Positions 2,776 through 45,622 of a stretch of DNA of 64,000 nt are shown here, in pieces. The position numbers and the translations under genes are program-made. The stretch covers positions 98,092-162,091 of the forward strand of contig JBAXTI010000001.1 in the NCBI GenBank assembly GCA_037130265.1. Direction: 5' to 3'. The DNA is from a bacterium. GTDB lineage: Bacteria > Patescibacteriota > Minisyncoccia > Phycocordibacterales > JBBTRF01. Every line of letters begins with the position of its first letter. Position 1 is the stretch's first letter. Below the pieces are notes generated by a model. That model was not told the DNA's origin and ran no database searches. It saw nothing but the letters and a program-made list of their open reading frames with translations.

Positions 2776-3972
2776 ATGGCAGAAGTATTCGATCGATCAA
2801 AGCCTCACGTTAACGTCGGTACTATTGGTCACGTCGACCACGGCAAGACTACTCTTACCGCGGCTCTTACCGTTGTGCAGTCAAAGAAAGGTCTCGCGAC
2901 CCCAATTGCGTACGACCAGGTAGCAAAGGCGTCTGAGAAGGATGGACGACGAGATCCTTCAAAGATCATTACCATTGCGATTTCACACGTTGAGTACTCA
3001 ACTGTGGCTCGACACTACGCTCACGTCGACTGTCCAGGTCACGCTGACTACGTCAAGAACATGATTACTGGTGCCGCTCAGATGGACGGCGCTATTCTCG
3101 TGGTATCTGCTGTAGACGGACCAATGCCACAGACTCGAGAGCACATTCTCCTCGCAAAGCAGGTGGGTGTTCCAAAGCTTGTTGTATTTTTGAACAAGTG
3201 TGACATGGTAGATGACAAGGATATGCTTGACCTCGTTGAGGCCGAGATCCGAGATTTGATGGACAAGTATGGATTTGACGGAAAGGGAACCCCAGTGATC
3301 CGAGGTTCAGCGCTCAAGGCGATCGAAGGCGACCCAGTATGGGTAGCAAAGATTGATGAGCTTTTGAATGCGCTCGACACCTACATCCCTATGCCAGTGC
3401 GTGAGATCGACAAGCCATTCTTGATGCCTATCGAAGACATCTTCTCTATTGAAGGACGAGGAACCGTGGTTACTGGCCGAATCGAGCGAGGAATCGCAAA
3501 GGTTGGCGAGGAAGTTGAAATCATTGGTCTTAAGCCGACTGCAAAGTCTACTATCACCGGTATCGAAATGTTCAACAAGCAGTTGAACGAAGGTATGGCA
3601 GGTGACAACGCGGGTGTCCTCCTCCGAGGTACTCGAAAGGAAGACGTAACCCGAGGTCAGGTACTTGCAAAGCCAGGTACTACCACTCCTCACACTGATT
3701 TCGAAGGAGAAATCTACGTTCTCAAGAAGGAAGAAGGTGGCCGACACACTCCATTCTTCAATGGTTACAAGCCACAGTTCTACATCCGAACCACAGACGT
3801 CACCGGTGAGGTAACCCTCGCTGCTGGTACTGAAATGGTTATGCCAGGAGACACTGTAAAGTTCATCGTTAAGCTCGTAGCGCCTATTGCGCTCGAAGAG
3901 AAGATGCGATTTGCAGTTCGAGAAGGCGGACGAACCGTAGGTGCGGGTGTGGTCACTAAGATCACTAAGTAA
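2776..3972 (+). CDS. tuf: Elongation factor Tu
   Basis: [32 protein letters not shown]-motifs; full length 398 aa. Confidence 0.98.
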
Positions 3973-5058: not shown

Positions 5059-5820
5059 ATGAACACTCTAGAAGCAAAAATCTATACTCAGGACGGCAAG
5101 GCTGCTGGCGCTTTCGAGCTCCCAGAGAATGTCTTTGGTCTGTCTTGGAATGCCGACTTGGTACATCAGGTGATGACATCAATGTTGACTTCAAAGCGCA
5201 ACCCAGTTGCTCACACTCAGACTCGAGGTGATGTCCGAGGAGGCGGTAAGAAGCCATGGCAGCAGAAGGGTACCGGTCGTGCTCGACACGGTTCTATCCG
5301 ATCACCATTGTGGCCAGGTGGAGGTGTGTCTCACGGTCCTCGAAACGACAAGAACTTCGACCGAAAGATCAACCAGAAGATGAAGGCGAAGGCGCTCTTC
5401 ACCTTGCTCTCAAAGAAAATGCGAGATGGCGAAGTATTGTTCGTTGAGTCTATTACTCTCAAGGAGGCAAAGACTAAGCAGGCGAAGTCTCTCATTGCTG
5501 CACTCGCAGGGGTGAAGGGCTACGAAATGCTCGCTACCAAGAAGAACAACACCGCCTTCATTGCAATGTCTGCAAAGAGCGCTTCAGTAGACCGAAGCTT
5601 CGGCAACATGAGCAATATTTCAGTCAATGAAGTACGAAACCTCAATGTTCTGGACCTCATGAAGTACAAGTTTGTTGTTATAGAGAATCCAAAGAGCAGC
5701 GTCAGTTCTCTCGAAAGCCGACTTCCTGCACGAACCGCAGCGAGCGCACCTAAGGTGTTTGTGAAGAAGGAGGTAGCAAAGAAGGCGCCAAAGGCAGCCG
5801 TTAAGACTTCAAAGAAATAA
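5059..5820 (+). CDS. rplD: 50S ribosomal protein L4 (with Lys/Ala-rich C-terminal extension)
   Basis: GGGKKPWQQKGTGRARHGSIRSPLWPGGGVSHGPR motif. Confidence 0.93.
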   Translation: MNTLEAKIYTQDGKAAGAFELPENVFGLSWNADLVHQVMTSMLTSKRNPVAHTQTRGDVRGGGKKPWQQKGTGRARHGSIRSPLWPGGGVSHGPRNDKNFDRKINQKMKAKALFTLLSKKMRDGEVLFVESITLKEAKTKQAKSLIAALAGVKGYEMLATKKNNTAFIAMSAKSASVDRSFGNMSNISVNEVRNLNVLDLMKYKFVVIENPKSSVSSLESRLPARTAASAPKVFVKKEVAKKAPKAAVKTSKK

Positions 5821-5821
5821 C

Positions 5822-6118
5822 ATGACTACTATTACCGTAAAACAAGACCCAGTATCTGTCATCCTCGGTCCACGTATCACCGAGAAGGCGGCCCGCTTGG
5901 CCGAGAAGAAGGTCTACACCTTCAACGTGACCCAGAGTGCCAACGTCGCTTCTATTAAGGCGGCGATCAAGACCTTGTACAAAGTGAGCCCAATCGACGT
6001 GAAGATCCTCGCGGTGCCTTCAAAGCGATCATTTGTCCGAGGTAAGGCTGGCGTCAAGCAGGGTGGTAAGAAGGCCTATGTTACCCTCGGCAAGAAGGAG
6101 ACCATTGAATTTGTATAA
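5822..6118 (+). CDS. rplW: 50S ribosomal protein L23
   Basis: Position and sequence (ILGPRITEKAARL...) fit L23; ATG overlaps the rplD stop. Confidence 0.9.
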   Translation: MTTITVKQDPVSVILGPRITEKAARLAEKKVYTFNVTQSANVASIKAAIKTLYKVSPIDVKILAVPSKRSFVRGKAGVKQGGKKAYVTLGKKETIEFV

Positions 6119-7129: not shown

Positions 7130-7399
7130 ATGAATACTACCATTCAACTTCGTATCGATAAGGCGACCAAAGTAAGCGCTCAAAAGGTGCTTGCCGAGCT
7201 TGGCTTGGACATGTCTTCCGCCATGAAGCTCTTTCTCCGCACGGTGTCACGGACCAAATCGATTCCTTTCGAAATCCGCACGGTAAATGGCTTTACTCCT
7301 GCCCAGGAGGCGCGAATGCTCAAAGAGATTGCTTGGACCGAGAAGTATGGAAAAGGATACAAGACCGCTGAAGAATTAACAAAACACCTGCTCTCGTAA
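7130..7399 (+). CDS. dinJ: Type II antitoxin, RelB/DinJ family
   Basis: MNTTIQLRIDKATKVSAQKVLAELGLDMSSAMKLFLRTVSRTKSIPFEI matches the DinJ ribbon-helix-helix N-terminus (RIDEDLK..A..VL...GL..S.....L..V..E..LPF). Confidence 0.8.
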   Translation: MNTTIQLRIDKATKVSAQKVLAELGLDMSSAMKLFLRTVSRTKSIPFEIRTVNGFTPAQEARMLKEIAWTEKYGKGYKTAEELTKHLLS

Positions 7400-7402
7400 G
7401 TA

Positions 7403-7681
7403 ATGCTTGAAATAAGAGAGACGAAACAATTTAAAAAGCAATTCAAACGAGTTGCCCGATCGGGCGATTTCGATATGAGACTGTTCCATGCAGTGCTTAA
7501 TGTGTTGGCAAGAGGCGAATCTCTTGATGAAAAGTATCGAGATCACCAGCTTTCCGGTGACATGAAGGAGGCTCGAGAATGTCATCTAAAAGGTGATTTG
7601 TTGTTGGTGTATAAGATAAGAAAGGAAATTCTCGTTTTATCCCTTGTCGGCATTGGTAGCCACTCTGAACTCTTCGACTAA
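7403..7681 (+). CDS. yafQ: Type II toxin, YafQ family mRNA interferase
   Basis: YRDHQLSGDMKEARECHLKGDLLLVYKI...GSHSELF aligns with the YafQ core (YKDHPLQGSWKGYRDAHVEPDWILIYK...GTHAALF). Confidence 0.85.
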   Translation: MLEIRETKQFKKQFKRVARSGDFDMRLFHAVLNVLARGESLDEKYRDHQLSGDMKEARECHLKGDLLLVYKIRKEILVLSLVGIGSHSELFD

Positions 7682-8182: not shown

Positions 8183-8587
8183 ATGGTTACCGCATCACTC
8201 AACGATTATCGACAAGCACCACGAAAGGTTCGCCTTGTTGCAAACCTCGTAAAGGGCAAGAAAGTAGGGGATGCGATGAACATGCTCAACTTCCTCGTGA
8301 AGGAGGCTTCTGGTCCAATGAAGAAGCTCATTGCTTCAGCTGTGGCAAATGCCAAGACAAATTTCAATCTCTCTTCTGAAAACCTTTTCATCAAAAGCAT
8401 AGAGGTCAATGGTGGTACCATCATGAAGCGCAGTATGCCTCGAGCTCGCGGTAGTGCCTTTCCGATCCACAAGCACTCAAGTCACGTCACTTTGGTATTG
8501 GATGTCATGGTAGAGAAGCCAAAGAAGGCCGCAAAGGTAGCGAGTGCAGCAAAGGCGGCTCCAAAAACTAATAAAGACACCAAATAA
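8183..8587 (+). CDS. rplV: 50S ribosomal protein L22 (KPKKAAK C-terminal tail)
   Basis: APRKVRLVANLVKGKKVGDAMNMLNF...MPRARGSAFPIHKHSSHVT. Confidence 0.93.
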   Translation: MVTASLNDYRQAPRKVRLVANLVKGKKVGDAMNMLNFLVKEASGPMKKLIASAVANAKTNFNLSSENLFIKSIEVNGGTIMKRSMPRARGSAFPIHKHSSHVTLVLDVMVEKPKKAAKVASAAKAAPKTNKDTK

Positions 8588-33670: not shown

Positions 33671-33677
33671 TTTGTTG

Positions 33678-34069
33678 TGGAGATGGGAGGAATTGAACCC
33701 CCGTGCAGAAGAGTCTAGTGAATGGGTCTACGAAGGGTAGGGCGCTTCTATGTCTGCGGGGCAGACAATTCGCGTGTGCCGTTATGAAACGACCGAAAGG
33801 CGGCTCGCGCTATTCCCATGATCTCGAATCGGCGGCGGGACTCCGCTGATCCTATTCCACAAATATAGCGTCAGGACCGAACGGTGTGGAAACCATCCGG
33901 CTGGCGTCGCTTAGGCTTTAGCGTAAGCGAATGCAAAGTCGTTCGCACTTGCGTACGGAGACTTTACAGATCCAAGTTTTGCACTTAGAATTTTCAGCCT
34001 TTTTAAGAGTTACTGAAGCTCTCCTTCGCACATTCAAGAGATATTCTTCCGTCGATGCCTGGCATCCCC
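33678..34069 (-). ncRNA. ssrA: tmRNA (SsrA), about 392 nt
   Basis: Minus strand 5'-GGGGATGCCAGGCATCGACGG... and 3'-...GGGGGTTCAATTCCTCCCATCTCCAC (tRNA-like T-arm and acceptor); candidate tag ORF ...GCGAACGACTTTGCATTCGCTTACGCTAAAGCCTAA (ANDFAFAYAKA*); smpB immediately upstream. Confidence 0.85.
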
Positions 34070-38219: not shown

Positions 38220-38292
38220 GCGCCCGTAGCTCAGTTGGTAGAGCAGGTGTCTTATACACACCTGGCCGGGGGTTCGAATCCCTCCGGGCGCA
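38220..38292 (+). tRNA. tRNA-Ile, anticodon UAU (TAT)
   Basis: Cloverleaf GCGCCCG/CGGGCGC acceptor, GCTC-AGTTGGTA-GAGC D-arm, anticodon stem GGTGT/ACACC with loop CTTATAC (U33, A37), T-arm GGGGG-TTCGAAT-CCCTC; CCA not encoded. Confidence 0.8.
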
Positions 38293-38309
38293 CATTTTTT
38301 CAGACGAGG

Positions 38310-43596: not shown

Positions 43597-44436
43597 GTGT
43601 CGGTGGAGACGACCAAGATCTCATTATTCGAAGGGAAAAAAGTACGTAAGACCATTCATTGTGATGAATGGTGGTTTTCTGTTGTTGATATAGTCGAAGC
43701 TCTCACGGACTCAACGAATCCACGCGTATATTGGGCAGTGATGAAAGATCGCTTGGAGAAAGATGAGAAAGTTCAACTGTTTACATTTTGTAAACAGTTG
43801 AAATTGGAGGCGTCTGATGGCAAAATGCGAGAAACTGATTGTGCGAATACCGAAGGGGTATTTCGTATTATTCAGTCTATTCCATCGCCGAAAGCGGAGC
43901 CATTTAAACGTTGGTTGGCACAGGTTGGGTACGAGCGTGTCAAGGAGATCGAAAATCCAGAATTGGCCCAGGACAGAATGAAGGCGTTGTATGAAAAGAA
44001 GGGTTATTCAAAGGGCTGGATCGACAAGCGGATTCGTGGCATTGCGATACGGCAGAGTTTGACTGATGAGTGGAAAGAAAGGGGGATTTTTGGCGAACAA
44101 GATTACGCTATCTTGACCGCTGAGATTTCTAAGGCGACATTCGGCATGACTCCGAGCGAGTACAAGGAGTACAAGCACTTGAAAAAGGAAAATTTGCGTG
44201 ATCACATGACCGACTTGGAGCTTATCTTTACGATGCTTGGAGAGCGGGTGACGACTGAGATATCGGAGATTGAGAAGCCGGAAACGTTTGATAAAAATAA
44301 GCAGGTGGCGAAGCGTGGTGGTAGGGTTGCGGGGAATGCGAGAAAGCAGACGGAGAAGGAAATTGGGAAGAGTGTGGTGTCGAAGAAGAATTTTTTGGGG
44401 AAAGGGGATGTTGGGGTGTTGGAGAAAGAGCTTTGA
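43597..44436 (+). CDS. Bro-N domain protein (phage antirepressor-like N-terminus) with C-terminal charged domain
   Basis: ISLFEGKKVRKTIHCDEWWFSVVDIVEALTDSTNP...GVFRIIQSIPSPKAEPFKRWLAQV is a typical Bro-N/KilA-N-like pattern; GTG start. Confidence 0.7.
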   Translation: MSVETTKISLFEGKKVRKTIHCDEWWFSVVDIVEALTDSTNPRVYWAVMKDRLEKDEKVQLFTFCKQLKLEASDGKMRETDCANTEGVFRIIQSIPSPKAEPFKRWLAQVGYERVKEIENPELAQDRMKALYEKKGYSKGWIDKRIRGIAIRQSLTDEWKERGIFGEQDYAILTAEISKATFGMTPSEYKEYKHLKKENLRDHMTDLELIFTMLGERVTTEISEIEKPETFDKNKQVAKRGGRVAGNARKQTEKEIGKSVVSKKNFLGKGDVGVLEKEL

Positions 44437-44440
44437 ATTT

Positions 44441-44530
44441 TGGCGGAAAGAGTGGGATTCGAACCCACGGTCCGTTTAACGGGACGACGGTTTAGTAAAC
44501 CGTTGATTTAAACCACTCATCCATCTTTCC
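44441..44530 (-). tRNA. Class II tRNA, Ser-like, anticodon ACU (A34), CCA encoded
   Basis: GGAAAGA/TCTTTCC acceptor, 3-bp D-stem with GAGTGGTTTAA loop, anticodon stem ACGGT/ACCGT with loop TTACTAA, long variable arm, discriminator G. Confidence 0.7.
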
Positions 44531-44719
44531 AAGGTTTTGATTCGGTCCCTCGACCATCGTCAAATTGATTCGGTCCCTACAGGACCTGTACAGGCTTCGT
44601 ATTTTCTTAAAGCTCGCACGGCTCGCTTATCGAAAATATACTCAGCCTTTTCGAATCCCCCACGAAAAGTCCGAAGGGACTTTTCTCCCTTCCTTGTTCG
44701 TGAGCTCCGCTCACTTTCT

Positions 44720-44807
44720 GCGGAAGGGGGGGGATTCGAACCCCCGAGGGTTGTTTAGACCCTGCCTCTTTAGCAAAGAGGTACATTCGACCGCTCTGAC
44801 ACCCCTC
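44720..44807 (-). tRNA. tRNA-Ser, anticodon GCU
   Basis: GGAGGGG/CCCTTCC acceptor, D-loop GAGCGGTCGAA, anticodon loop TTGCTAA, long variable arm, T-arm GGGGG-TTCGAAT-CCCCC, discriminator G. Confidence 0.8.
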
Positions 44808-44878
44808 CGTGGACATTGGCGATGATAGCATATTTTCCTGCGTTTATGCCAGTCTTTGTCGGACTAGCAGGGGGTATT

Positions 44879-45622
44879 TTAATGAGCGAGGGCAATAGCG
44901 AGTACCTCGCTGGCGCCCGCTCGCCGCAGTGTCTCGCGGGCTTGCCCCAGGGTGCTCCCGGTAGTCATGACGTCATCGATGATGAATATCTTCCGGTCAC
45001 GCGTATTTTCGCATGCACCGCCAATGTTTGAAACCTCAAAACAATCGTTCAGATTTTTTAGCCGTTCCGCTCGTGAGAGTTTTGTTTGCGGTGTCGTGTG
45101 ATGTTTGCGACGCAGGAGGTCTGGCGCGACACACCACTCCTCATTTTTCGGCAATTGTTCGAGGATCAGTTCAATCTGATTGTATCCGCGCTCGCGCTGT
45201 CGCTTCTCGGAAAGGGGGATCGGTACAAGAAGGATGGGTGCTCTACCACCGTCACTCGTTGAGACATGTTTTTGTAGTTCCTCCGCCACCAACTCGGCAA
45301 AAAGCTTCGCCACCTTGGCATTCTTCCGATATTTCAGTTCCCACACCGCGGCACGGACATGACGGTCACGATAGGAGAGGATCGCACGTGACCAGTCGGC
45401 ACATTCTGGTGGGTAATGGCCACGGAAGCGACGGCTGTGGGGGCTGGATGTGGTGTCGCCGGATGAGATGCTGCCAGCAAAACACTCCGCCGACATCTGC
45501 TCGAGCTCCCGCACCAAGCCGCTTTTCGGAAACAGGAGGTTGAGAATAATATCCAGGGCGGTGTAGAGTGATGCGCGTAAGCTTGTGCGTAGGGTGCTGT
45601 GGAATTTCGCGAAACATTTCAT
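44879..45622 (-). CDS. comFC: ComF family protein (ComFC, phosphoribosyltransferase-like)
   Basis: N-terminal Cys/His zinc-finger region, C-terminal PRTase motif IFIIDDVMTTGSTL. Confidence 0.8.
   Translation of the reverse strand: MKCFAKFHSTLRTSLRASLYTALDIILNLLFPKSGLVRELEQMSAECFAGSISSGDTTSSPHSRRFRGHYPPECADWSRAILSYRDRHVRAAVWELKYRKNAKVAKLFAELVAEELQKHVSTSDGGRAPILLVPIPLSEKRQRERGYNQIELILEQLPKNEEWCVAPDLLRRKHHTTPQTKLSRAERLKNLNDCFEVSNIGGACENTRDRKIFIIDDVMTTGSTLGQARETLRRAGASEVLAIALAH

Follow-up and report, generated by a model that had tools for sequence, protein, structure and literature searches.

The window, by which is meant the whole stretch of 64,000 nt analysed here, contains three tRNA genes recognized by ARAGORN, namely tRNA-Ile(UAU), tRNA-Ser(ACU) and tRNA-Ser(GCU), along with a tmRNA (Table 1). 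The two serine tRNA genes lie on the same strand, Ser(ACU) downstream of Ser(GCU), with 189 nt between them. The Rfam tRNA model assigns the ACU gene 58.5 bits (E 4.6e-10, span 44444-44530, gathering score 29); the default 'gathering' run missed Ser(GCU), which a more permissive run scored at 47.1 bits.

Table 1. Features of the window around the pair of serine tRNA genes and elsewhere, in window coordinates.
Feature	Position	Strand	Basis
tRNA-Ser(ACU), class II, G73, encoded CCA at 44441-44443	44441..44530	-	ARAGORN; Rfam tRNA model
Anticodon ACT (A34 = 44496, C35 = 44495, T36 = 44494), loop TTACTAA	44494..44496	-	Sequence
Spacer between the two Ser tRNAs	44531..44719	-	Alignment, TRF, folding
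tRNA-Ser(GCU), canonical AGY reader, upstream of the ACU gene, without encoded CCA	44720..44808	-	ARAGORN; Rfam 47.1 bits
Gene for a Bro-N domain protein, running towards the 3' end of the ACU tRNA	43597..44436	+	Pfam PF02498
ComF-family phosphoribosyltransferase gene, synteny anchor	44879..45622	-	
tRNA-Ile(UAU)	38220-38293	+	ARAGORN; Rfam 73.5 bits
tmRNA	33675-34069	-	Rfam 87.4 bits; not reported by the ARAGORN window scan

On the minus strand the ACU gene reads GGAAAGA-UG-GAUG-AGUGGUUUA-AAUC-A-ACGGU-UUACUAA-ACCGU-(18-nt variable arm)-GUGGG-UUCGAAU-CCCAC-UCUUUCC-G-CCA. The acceptor stem (GGAAAGA/TCTTTCC) has 7 bp and U8 is present, as read from the sequence; the D stem has 3 bp (G10-C25, A11-U24 and U12-A23) followed by G13.A22; the anticodon stem (ACGGT/ACCGT) is a perfect 5 bp; the 18-nt variable arm can form a hairpin; and the T arm (GTGGG-TTCGAAT-CCCAC) precedes the discriminator G73 and the encoded CCA. 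All stems are fully paired in this copy, and the anticodon falls at gene position 35 in the ARAGORN call owing to an extra base in the D loop. The cloverleaf and its score, the long variable arm, the 3-bp D stem and G73 are those of a bacterial class II tRNA-Ser, the class II tRNAs for Leu and Tyr having A73, unlike the G73 of Ser. Positions 44441-44530 of the minus strand are thus a genuine tRNA-Ser gene with an anticodon that begins with A, and we regard the gene with high confidence as real and functional; judging by its identity elements, the product would be aminoacylated with serine by SerRS. The original prediction of a well-formed class II Ser-type tRNA with an encoded A34 is therefore upheld by ARAGORN, by the Rfam score of 58.5 bits and by the reading of the stems; the loops it had given, TTACTAA for this gene and TTGCTAA for the neighbouring Ser(GCU), agree with the sequence, and its distance of 190 nt to that neighbour corresponds to the measured gap.

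The spacer between the two genes has features of its own. The approximately 100 nt directly after Ser(GCU) are nearly invariant in three species that elsewhere are about 22 % divergent. A 28-nt tandem repeat abuts the 5' end of the ACU tRNA, with one copy (GGGACCGAATCAATTTGACGATGGTCGA) at 44550-44577 and a partial copy at 44531-44549; its 28-nt unit, AGGACCGAATCAGTTTGATGGAGGTCGT, is present in about 1.7 copies in the window versus 3.4 in the related locus L128 (6976-7071; TRF). The predicted fold of the spacer has -63.9 kcal/mol (z = -4.05), better than all 200 shuffles. The spacer matched no Rfam family, and a promoter scan found no sigma-70 consensus within it. The flanks of the tRNA pair are chromosomal (ComF, Pil genes, UDG and RecG), and the wider neighbourhood comprises ComF, PilM/N/O/B/T, UDG, RecG, FtsH, SmpB and the tmRNA. 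Because of this gene neighbourhood, and because the ComF homologues bear names such as Kaiserbacteria and Paceibacterota, the window belongs within the Patescibacteria (CPR) and is Paceibacteria-like. Elsewhere in the window, a RelB/YafQ-type toxin-antitoxin pair lies inside the ribosomal protein operon, in the gap between rplB (L2) and rpsS (S19), at about 7130-7681 (+) (4642-5193 in L374). Within up to 10 kb beyond each end of the window there is no Arg tRNA, only tRNA-Met, tRNA-Asp and tRNA-Thr(CGU). In most bacteria AUA is read by a lysidine-modified CAU tRNA. The tRNA-Ile(UAU) of the window carries a second Watson-Crick-type anticodon, which is consistent with a reduced modification repertoire; the same tRNA was seen again in the CPR loci L165, L197, L238 and L379 and in 13 of the 120 metagenome loci listed.

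The original prediction had allowed for an assembly error at position 34, and a check of the base call instead gave A in further assemblies and in other species. The same A34 occurs in the Logan assembly of run SRR12676966, which perhaps used the same reads with a different assembly program and in which the contig ends exactly at ...CAACGGTTTACT, anticodon included, as well as in ENA assembly ERZ4222710 (NODE_1, 368 kb, coverage 20). Logan contigs of this species (L003, with its end at 8416 right after ACT) and of relatives (L129 and L132) stop within a Ser tRNA or at its margin, likely owing to graph branching at k-mers common to co-occurring CPR populations. Among the relatives, L128 (GCA_974945995.1) shares about 78 % nucleotide identity with the window over 8.4 kb, with protein identities of 96 % for PilB, 94 % for PilM, 88 % for Bro-N, 83 % for UDG and 62 % for ComF, and shows the same order of Ser(GCU), spacer, Ser(ACU) and Bro-N. 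Its Ser(ACU) lacks an encoded CCA and has two substitutions relative to the window, 27 A to C (a C27.U43 mismatch) and one variable-loop base. In L133, from another run (ComF 64 %), both Ser tRNAs, with the spacer, stand next to ComF and the ACU gene is identical to that of the window. In the somewhat more remote genome L130 (GCA_964602975.1; PilB 86 %), Ser(GCU) is the only one of the two at the locus, the ACU tRNA and Bro-N both being absent there, and the still more remote ComF-anchored loci L378-L380 have Ser(GCU) or no tRNA, with no Ser(ACU). The sequence of Ser(GCU) is 100 % identical across the window, L128, L130 and L133. Ser(ACU) with its A34 has therefore persisted since species that now differ by about 22 % in DNA diverged, and it is not universal at the locus; with no copy found beside ComF/Ser(GCU) in L130 and L378-L380, it is dispensable or movable. 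Since A34 is conserved in other species, a sequencing artefact is ruled out.

To what extent such a tRNA exists beyond this locus was assessed with a generic class II pattern with the loop TTACTAA, TTACTAAN{19,31}GGTTCGAATCC, run on GTDB species-representative genomes and on IMG/VR; there were at least 120 genomic and at least 120 viral matches, and the counts given refer to the matches listed. ARAGORN called tRNA-Ser(act) in 94 of the 120 genomic matches listed, mostly in Patescibacteria. Among loci with CPR names, 52 of the 55 listed carried it, and 35 of these 52 also had Ser(gct) on the 8-kb piece concerned; the names span Patescibacteria, Paceibacterota, Microgenomates, Saccharibacteria, Nomura-, Taylor-, Magasanik-, Zambryski-, Roizman-, Collier- and Levyibacteria. 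Copies in Nomurabacteria, Taylorbacteria and Parcubacteria MAGs match the window gene at 83-90 % identity. Thirteen of the matches listed, in MAGs of other phyla, have Ser(ACU) alone or in a phage-like array (e.g. L217), and all seven matches listed from cultured isolates were chance occurrences without a tRNA. MAGs labelled 'uncultured Gammaproteobacteria/Pseudomonadales' (TPA assemblies) carried Ser(act) in 22 of the 23 listed, and the nearest tRNA relatives of these genes are often CPR copies, so the taxonomic labels of these MAGs may be wrong. CPR-type Ser(ACU)/Ser(GCU)/Arg(GCG) clusters were seen in such MAGs at L141, L145, L157, L167, L172, L184, L185, L192 and other loci.

Based on a tally of 88 distinct genomic Ser(ACU) sequences, the acceptor pairs are 100 % paired, with G1-C72 and G2-C71 invariant and pairs 3-7 represented by two to five standard pair types; the 3-bp D stem is 100 %, the anticodon stem 97-100 % and the T stem 98-100 % paired, with abundant double changes; and G73, U8 and a variable-arm hairpin are each present in 88/88. 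Because the generic pattern had fixed A34, a second test left that position free, using the D-loop/anticodon-arm backbone of the window gene with N at 34 (TTTAAATCAACGGTTTNCTAAACCGTCG) on JGI metagenomes. Of at least 120 matches, all 120 metagenome contigs listed had A at position 34; they comprise 79 distinct full-length tRNAs, and Ser(GCU) is also present in 73 of the loci. The nearest neighbour in another genome was an ACU tRNA for 94 of the 94 Ser(ACU) genes among the matches listed. Median identity is 0.72-0.74 between ACU tRNAs and 0.59-0.60 between ACU and GCU tRNAs, also inside one genome, and the search pattern, by fixing 18 shared bases, raises the ACU-ACU value by a few points without explaining the gap; against the UCN-reading Ser tRNAs the median for ACU tRNAs is 0.52-0.61. 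The window copy shares the features of this family, including the UUACUAA loop, the G30-C40 and U31-A39 closing pairs, G73, a Ser(GCU) neighbour and ACU tRNAs as nearest relatives.

These comparisons indicate that Ser(ACU) genes are an isoacceptor family in their own right rather than products of repeated G34A mutation; this family is old, its structure is under selection and A34 is fixed in it, and Ser(ACU) is a regular isoacceptor of the whole lineage rather than an odd singleton. A recent G34A mutant of the adjoining Ser(GCU) is likewise rejected, as identity between the two genes of the window is only 62 % and the ACU genes belong to a family of their own. The prior rarity of A34 might still favour an error of sequencing or assembly, or a Ser(GCU) copy with G34A that is decaying as a pseudogene, yet the same base stands in two or three assemblies, A34 recurs in other species and in every one of the 120 metagenome contigs listed, identity to the adjoining GCU tRNA is low and the stems covary across the 88 variants; error is thus rejected, and the probability left to error or pseudogene together is negligible.

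The same tRNA is abundant in viruses, with tRNA-Ser(act) in 115 of the 120 IMG/VR viral contigs listed, and the cultured jumbo phages Salmonella phage Munch (MK268344.1) and Xanthomonas phage XaC1 (OR258281.1) have a Ser(ACU) with 77 % identity to the window gene. Typical partners in the viral arrays are Thr(UGU), Asn(GUU), Gln(UUG), Glu(UUC), Lys(UUU), Ile(UAU) and Arg(UCU); among the viral loci listed, Arg(UCU) occurs together with Ser(ACU) in 38/115 and Ser(GCU) in only 1/115. Additional A34 tRNAs otherwise held to be 'missing' were seen in viral contigs (L026, at 5753-5827, and others), namely Gly(ACC) in two loci, Phe(AAA) in one and Thr(AGU) in one, and a tRNA-Ala(AGC) lies in a MAG labelled Saccharibacteria (L153, 5911). 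Given this abundance in phage arrays, Ser(ACU) might be phage or mobile-element cargo, recently inserted with Bro-N beside Ser(GCU), and not a native component of decoding. With up to 82 % identity, viral Ser(ACU) genes resemble the window tRNA more than its own neighbour does (62 %); Bro-N is a domain characteristic of phages; L130 has neither the tRNA nor Bro-N; and tRNA-Ser(ACU) has been reported in tRNA arrays that Acidithiobacillus acquired horizontally (PMC4758250). On the other hand, no integrase, att-type repeats or other phage genes flank the window tRNA, and Bro-N, at 88 % between the window and L128, has diverged like the flanking PilM (94 %) and UDG (83 %), so that the block diverged with the genome. 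Among the matches listed, the nearest neighbour of a CPR Ser(ACU) is genomic in 52 of 53 cases and viral in one, that of a viral Ser(ACU) is viral in 106 of 115, and the CPR genes sit in Ser/Arg tRNA clusters rather than phage arrays. From this separate clustering of CPR and viral copies, the window gene looks native and not a recent import. A prophage or integrated element is rejected on these grounds, namely the lack of an integrase or att-like repeat, the divergence of Bro-N with the genome and the distance between CPR and viral copies, and the wider notion of mobile cargo appears improbable.

The use of the AGN codons was examined in a codon alignment of 12 orthologous proteins from the window, L128, L130 and L132. 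In these orthologue sets AGA was aligned with Arg 52 times, with Lys 22 times and with Asp and Gly three times each, and never with Ser (0); AGG was aligned with Lys 32, Arg 19 and Ser 3 times; and AGU was aligned with AGC or AGU in 164 of 232 cases, AGU and AGC interchanging freely. AGA and AGG are ordinary basic-residue codons in this lineage, not serine codons, and a recoding of AGA to Ser is rejected by the absence of Ser at AGA in these codon-level alignments; the altered decoding of AGA that the original prediction had entertained is thus not borne out, whereas its remark that AGA and AGG are missing from EF-Tu (2776-3972) agrees with the codon count. The window contains 68 AGA and 68 AGG codons per 18,356 codons, and in the other CPR and viral loci with Ser(ACU) AGA accounts for 1.2-1.5 % of codons. 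No enrichment of AGU was found, its share being 0.42 versus 0.50 for the other U-ending two-fold codons in the window and 0.61 versus 0.66 in the pooled CPR loci. Hence codon usage bears no signature of an extra AGU reader, and Ser(GCU) alone should suffice.

If A34 were deaminated to inosine, a case that the original prediction had raised, whether by TadA or by another enzyme, the tRNA would read AGU, AGC and, more weakly, AGA, which would become ambiguous or altered. The rarity of AGA and AGG in the window and their absence from EF-Tu would fit such a modification, and A-to-I conversion has been inferred for one two-fold-box tRNA, Phe-AAA, in E. coli (bioRxiv 10.64898/2026.05.15.725136). However, AGA aligns with Arg and Lys and never with Ser in the orthologues, it is common in other CPR and phage loci with Ser(ACU), and phage arrays pair Ser(ACU) with Arg(UCU). 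Additionally, the loop UUACUAA has U at position 36 and so presents UACU in place of the TadA-required UACG (U33-A34-C35-G36), and E. coli TadA leaves an ACU anticodon unconverted in a tRNA-Arg2-like loop (PMC11066159). Among the CPR matches listed, the CGY-reading Arg tRNAs have the anticodon GCG in eight cases and ACG in none. Published surveys associate Arg(ACG) with tadA and otherwise list Arg(GCG) as 'missing' in bacteria (PMC8007984); the occurrence of Arg(GCG) without Arg(ACG) suggests that CPR lineages lack TadA-type A-to-I wobble editing. Arg(GCG), with the loop UUGCGGA, was seen in CPR Ser/Arg clusters at L144, L157, L162, L166, L167, L186, L203 and L225. A tblastn search with E. coli TadA, of low power, gave no match in 151 kb from the window and its own contig, counted over pieces that overlap, nor in genome and metagenome loci totalling 1.55 Mb; a regex found no CDA motif in the window; and regex, tblastn and neighbour Pfam labels revealed no tadA around the window, in about 85 kb of the at least 368-kb contig. 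Deamination to inosine is an unlikely account of this tRNA, if a somewhat better one than mobile cargo. The experimental data obtained with ACU anticodons in E. coli concern engineered tRNAs, one of which gave 9.4 % reassignment at AGU, 0.36 % at AGG and values below detection at AGC and AGA (PMC11066159), while overexpression of Ser-tRNA(ACU) improved growth measures of E. coli (bioRxiv 10.64898/2026.05.15.725136).

The explanation favoured here, with a probability of roughly 60 %, is that Ser(ACU) is a functional, vertically inherited tRNA-Ser isoacceptor of Patescibacteria (CPR, Paceibacteria-type) that retains an unmodified A34 and reads AGU. SerRS would charge it with serine by way of the long variable arm and G73 and not the anticodon; A34 would stay unmodified and form a Watson-Crick pair with the U of AGU; and Ser(ACU) would thereby be a dedicated AGU reader, with the adjacent Ser(GCU) reading AGC and wobbling on AGU, and AGA/AGG remaining arginine. 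Expression, serylation, freedom from inosine and reading of AGU only are what we infer for this tRNA, and in the step of modification and decoding our confidence is moderate. SerRS does not depend on the anticodon, and the synthetases of other NNY split boxes use it, so a G34A change in those boxes would be expected to cost charging; Ser may be the one NNY split-box tRNA able to afford A34, since SerRS ignores the anticodon. More generally, there is perhaps an even chance that Patescibacteria and many phages routinely use an unmodified A34 split-box tRNA as a Watson-Crick-only AGU reader, enabled by an anticodon-blind SerRS and by the lack of TadA-type deamination, with Arg(GCG) in place of Arg(ACG).

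A role mainly outside decoding is conceivable too: Ser(ACU) could be a form of serine tRNA spared by a toxin or anticodon nuclease that attacks Ser(GCU), or else act as a regulatory RNA or a decoy. Its presence in both phages and episymbiotic bacteria would then be accounted for, phage tRNAs being thought to counter tRNA-targeting defences. The lack of AGU enrichment, which makes a pure codon-supply reason weak, points the same way, as do the 28-nt tandem repeat and conserved spacer that accompany the gene. Every ordinary feature of an elongator tRNA is nevertheless conserved, which a decoding role explains most simply, and a mainly non-decoding role is accordingly quite improbable, more so than either inosine or mobile cargo.

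As a decoding tRNA, Ser(ACU) may be compared with several known systems. Like the bacterial Ser(GCU) of the E. coli serV type, it is a class II tRNA with G73, a 3-bp D stem and a long variable arm, serves the same codon box from an adjoining gene and presumably shares the same SerRS; unlike it, Ser(ACU) has A34 in place of G34, and the identity between the two is approximately 60 % within and across genomes. The phage Ser(ACU) genes (IMG/VR arrays, Munch and XaC1) resemble the window gene in the UUACUAA loop, in G73, in 67-82 % identity and, in many copies, in the G30-C40/U31-A39 closing pairs, but differ from CPR copies in belonging to dense arrays of readers of A/U-ending codons, nearly always without Ser(GCU). 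The only regular A34 tRNA of bacteria is tRNA-Arg(ACG), in which TadA converts A34 to I34. It shares with Ser(ACU) a genomic A34 followed by C35 but has G36 where Ser(ACU) has U36 and hence no UACG; moreover, the box of Ser(ACU) is split, so that I34 would misread AGA, and the CPR loci examined show no sign of either tRNA-Arg(ACG) or TadA. Natural tRNAs with an unmodified A34 are the Mycoplasma tRNA-Thr(AGU) and the yeast mitochondrial tRNA-Arg(ACG), to which bioRxiv 10.64898/2026.05.15.725136 also refers. As proposed for Ser(ACU), these keep A34 in reduced genomes with few modification enzymes; however, they serve four-fold boxes, where reading all codons is harmless, whereas Ser(ACU) serves a two-fold set and requires specificity for U. 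In invertebrate mitochondria AGR codes for Ser, a Ser tRNA extending past AGY in the same box; this is the precedent behind the idea of altered AGA decoding, and it differs from the window lineage, which has no AGA-to-Ser signal. The engineered ACU tRNAs of E. coli have the same anticodon as Ser(ACU), are AGU-specific, not deaminated and not harmful, and provide the only experimental decoding data for ACU; unlike Ser(ACU), they are artificial, with a M. jannaschii tRNA-Tyr body or a G34A change in E. coli serV (PMC11066159; bioRxiv 10.64898/2026.05.15.725136).

That A34 is very unusual in bacteria, as the original prediction had stressed, agrees with published surveys. A34 in the Ser/Arg split box is described as 'universally missing', tRNA-Ser(ACU) being among eight such tRNAs, in a GtRNAdb-based survey (PMC8007984), and another account has ANN tRNAs universally absent from two-fold boxes and A-starting anticodons rare across cells and phages (bioRxiv 10.64898/2026.05.15.725136). 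A non-exhaustive literature search found only incidental listings of tRNA-Ser(ACU), for the Acidithiobacillus arrays (PMC4758250) and for chlorovirus ATCV-1 (PMC4810235). A study of tRNAs in 95 complete Patescibacteria genomes makes no mention of it, and the supplement of the tRNA-intron paper on Patescibacteria, which gives counts per amino acid only, has four to five Ser tRNAs in most genomes shown. Genome annotations surely carry Ser(ACU) genes already, silently.

Ser(ACU) is thus an ordinary kind of tRNA-Ser, a variant held to be non-existent and yet common in under-sampled lineages. For annotation pipelines and screens for codon reassignment, it follows that a Ser(ACU) gene is not to be taken as an error or as evidence of recoding. 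The avoidance of wobble adenosine in nearly all cells is an old open question, and the surveys that bear on it were built on cultured genomes. Common in phages as well as in a major radiation of bacteria, the conserved Ser(ACU) family offers a natural test case for the behaviour of an unmodified A34 on the ribosome, for its fidelity against AGA/AGG and for whether A34 tRNAs become possible once TadA is lost. If the reading of Ser(ACU) as an unmodified AGU reader is true, the rule that ANN anticodons are missing from split boxes would be a sampling artefact of cultured bacteria, and these lineages would be a natural setting in which to study the avoidance of A34 in other organisms.
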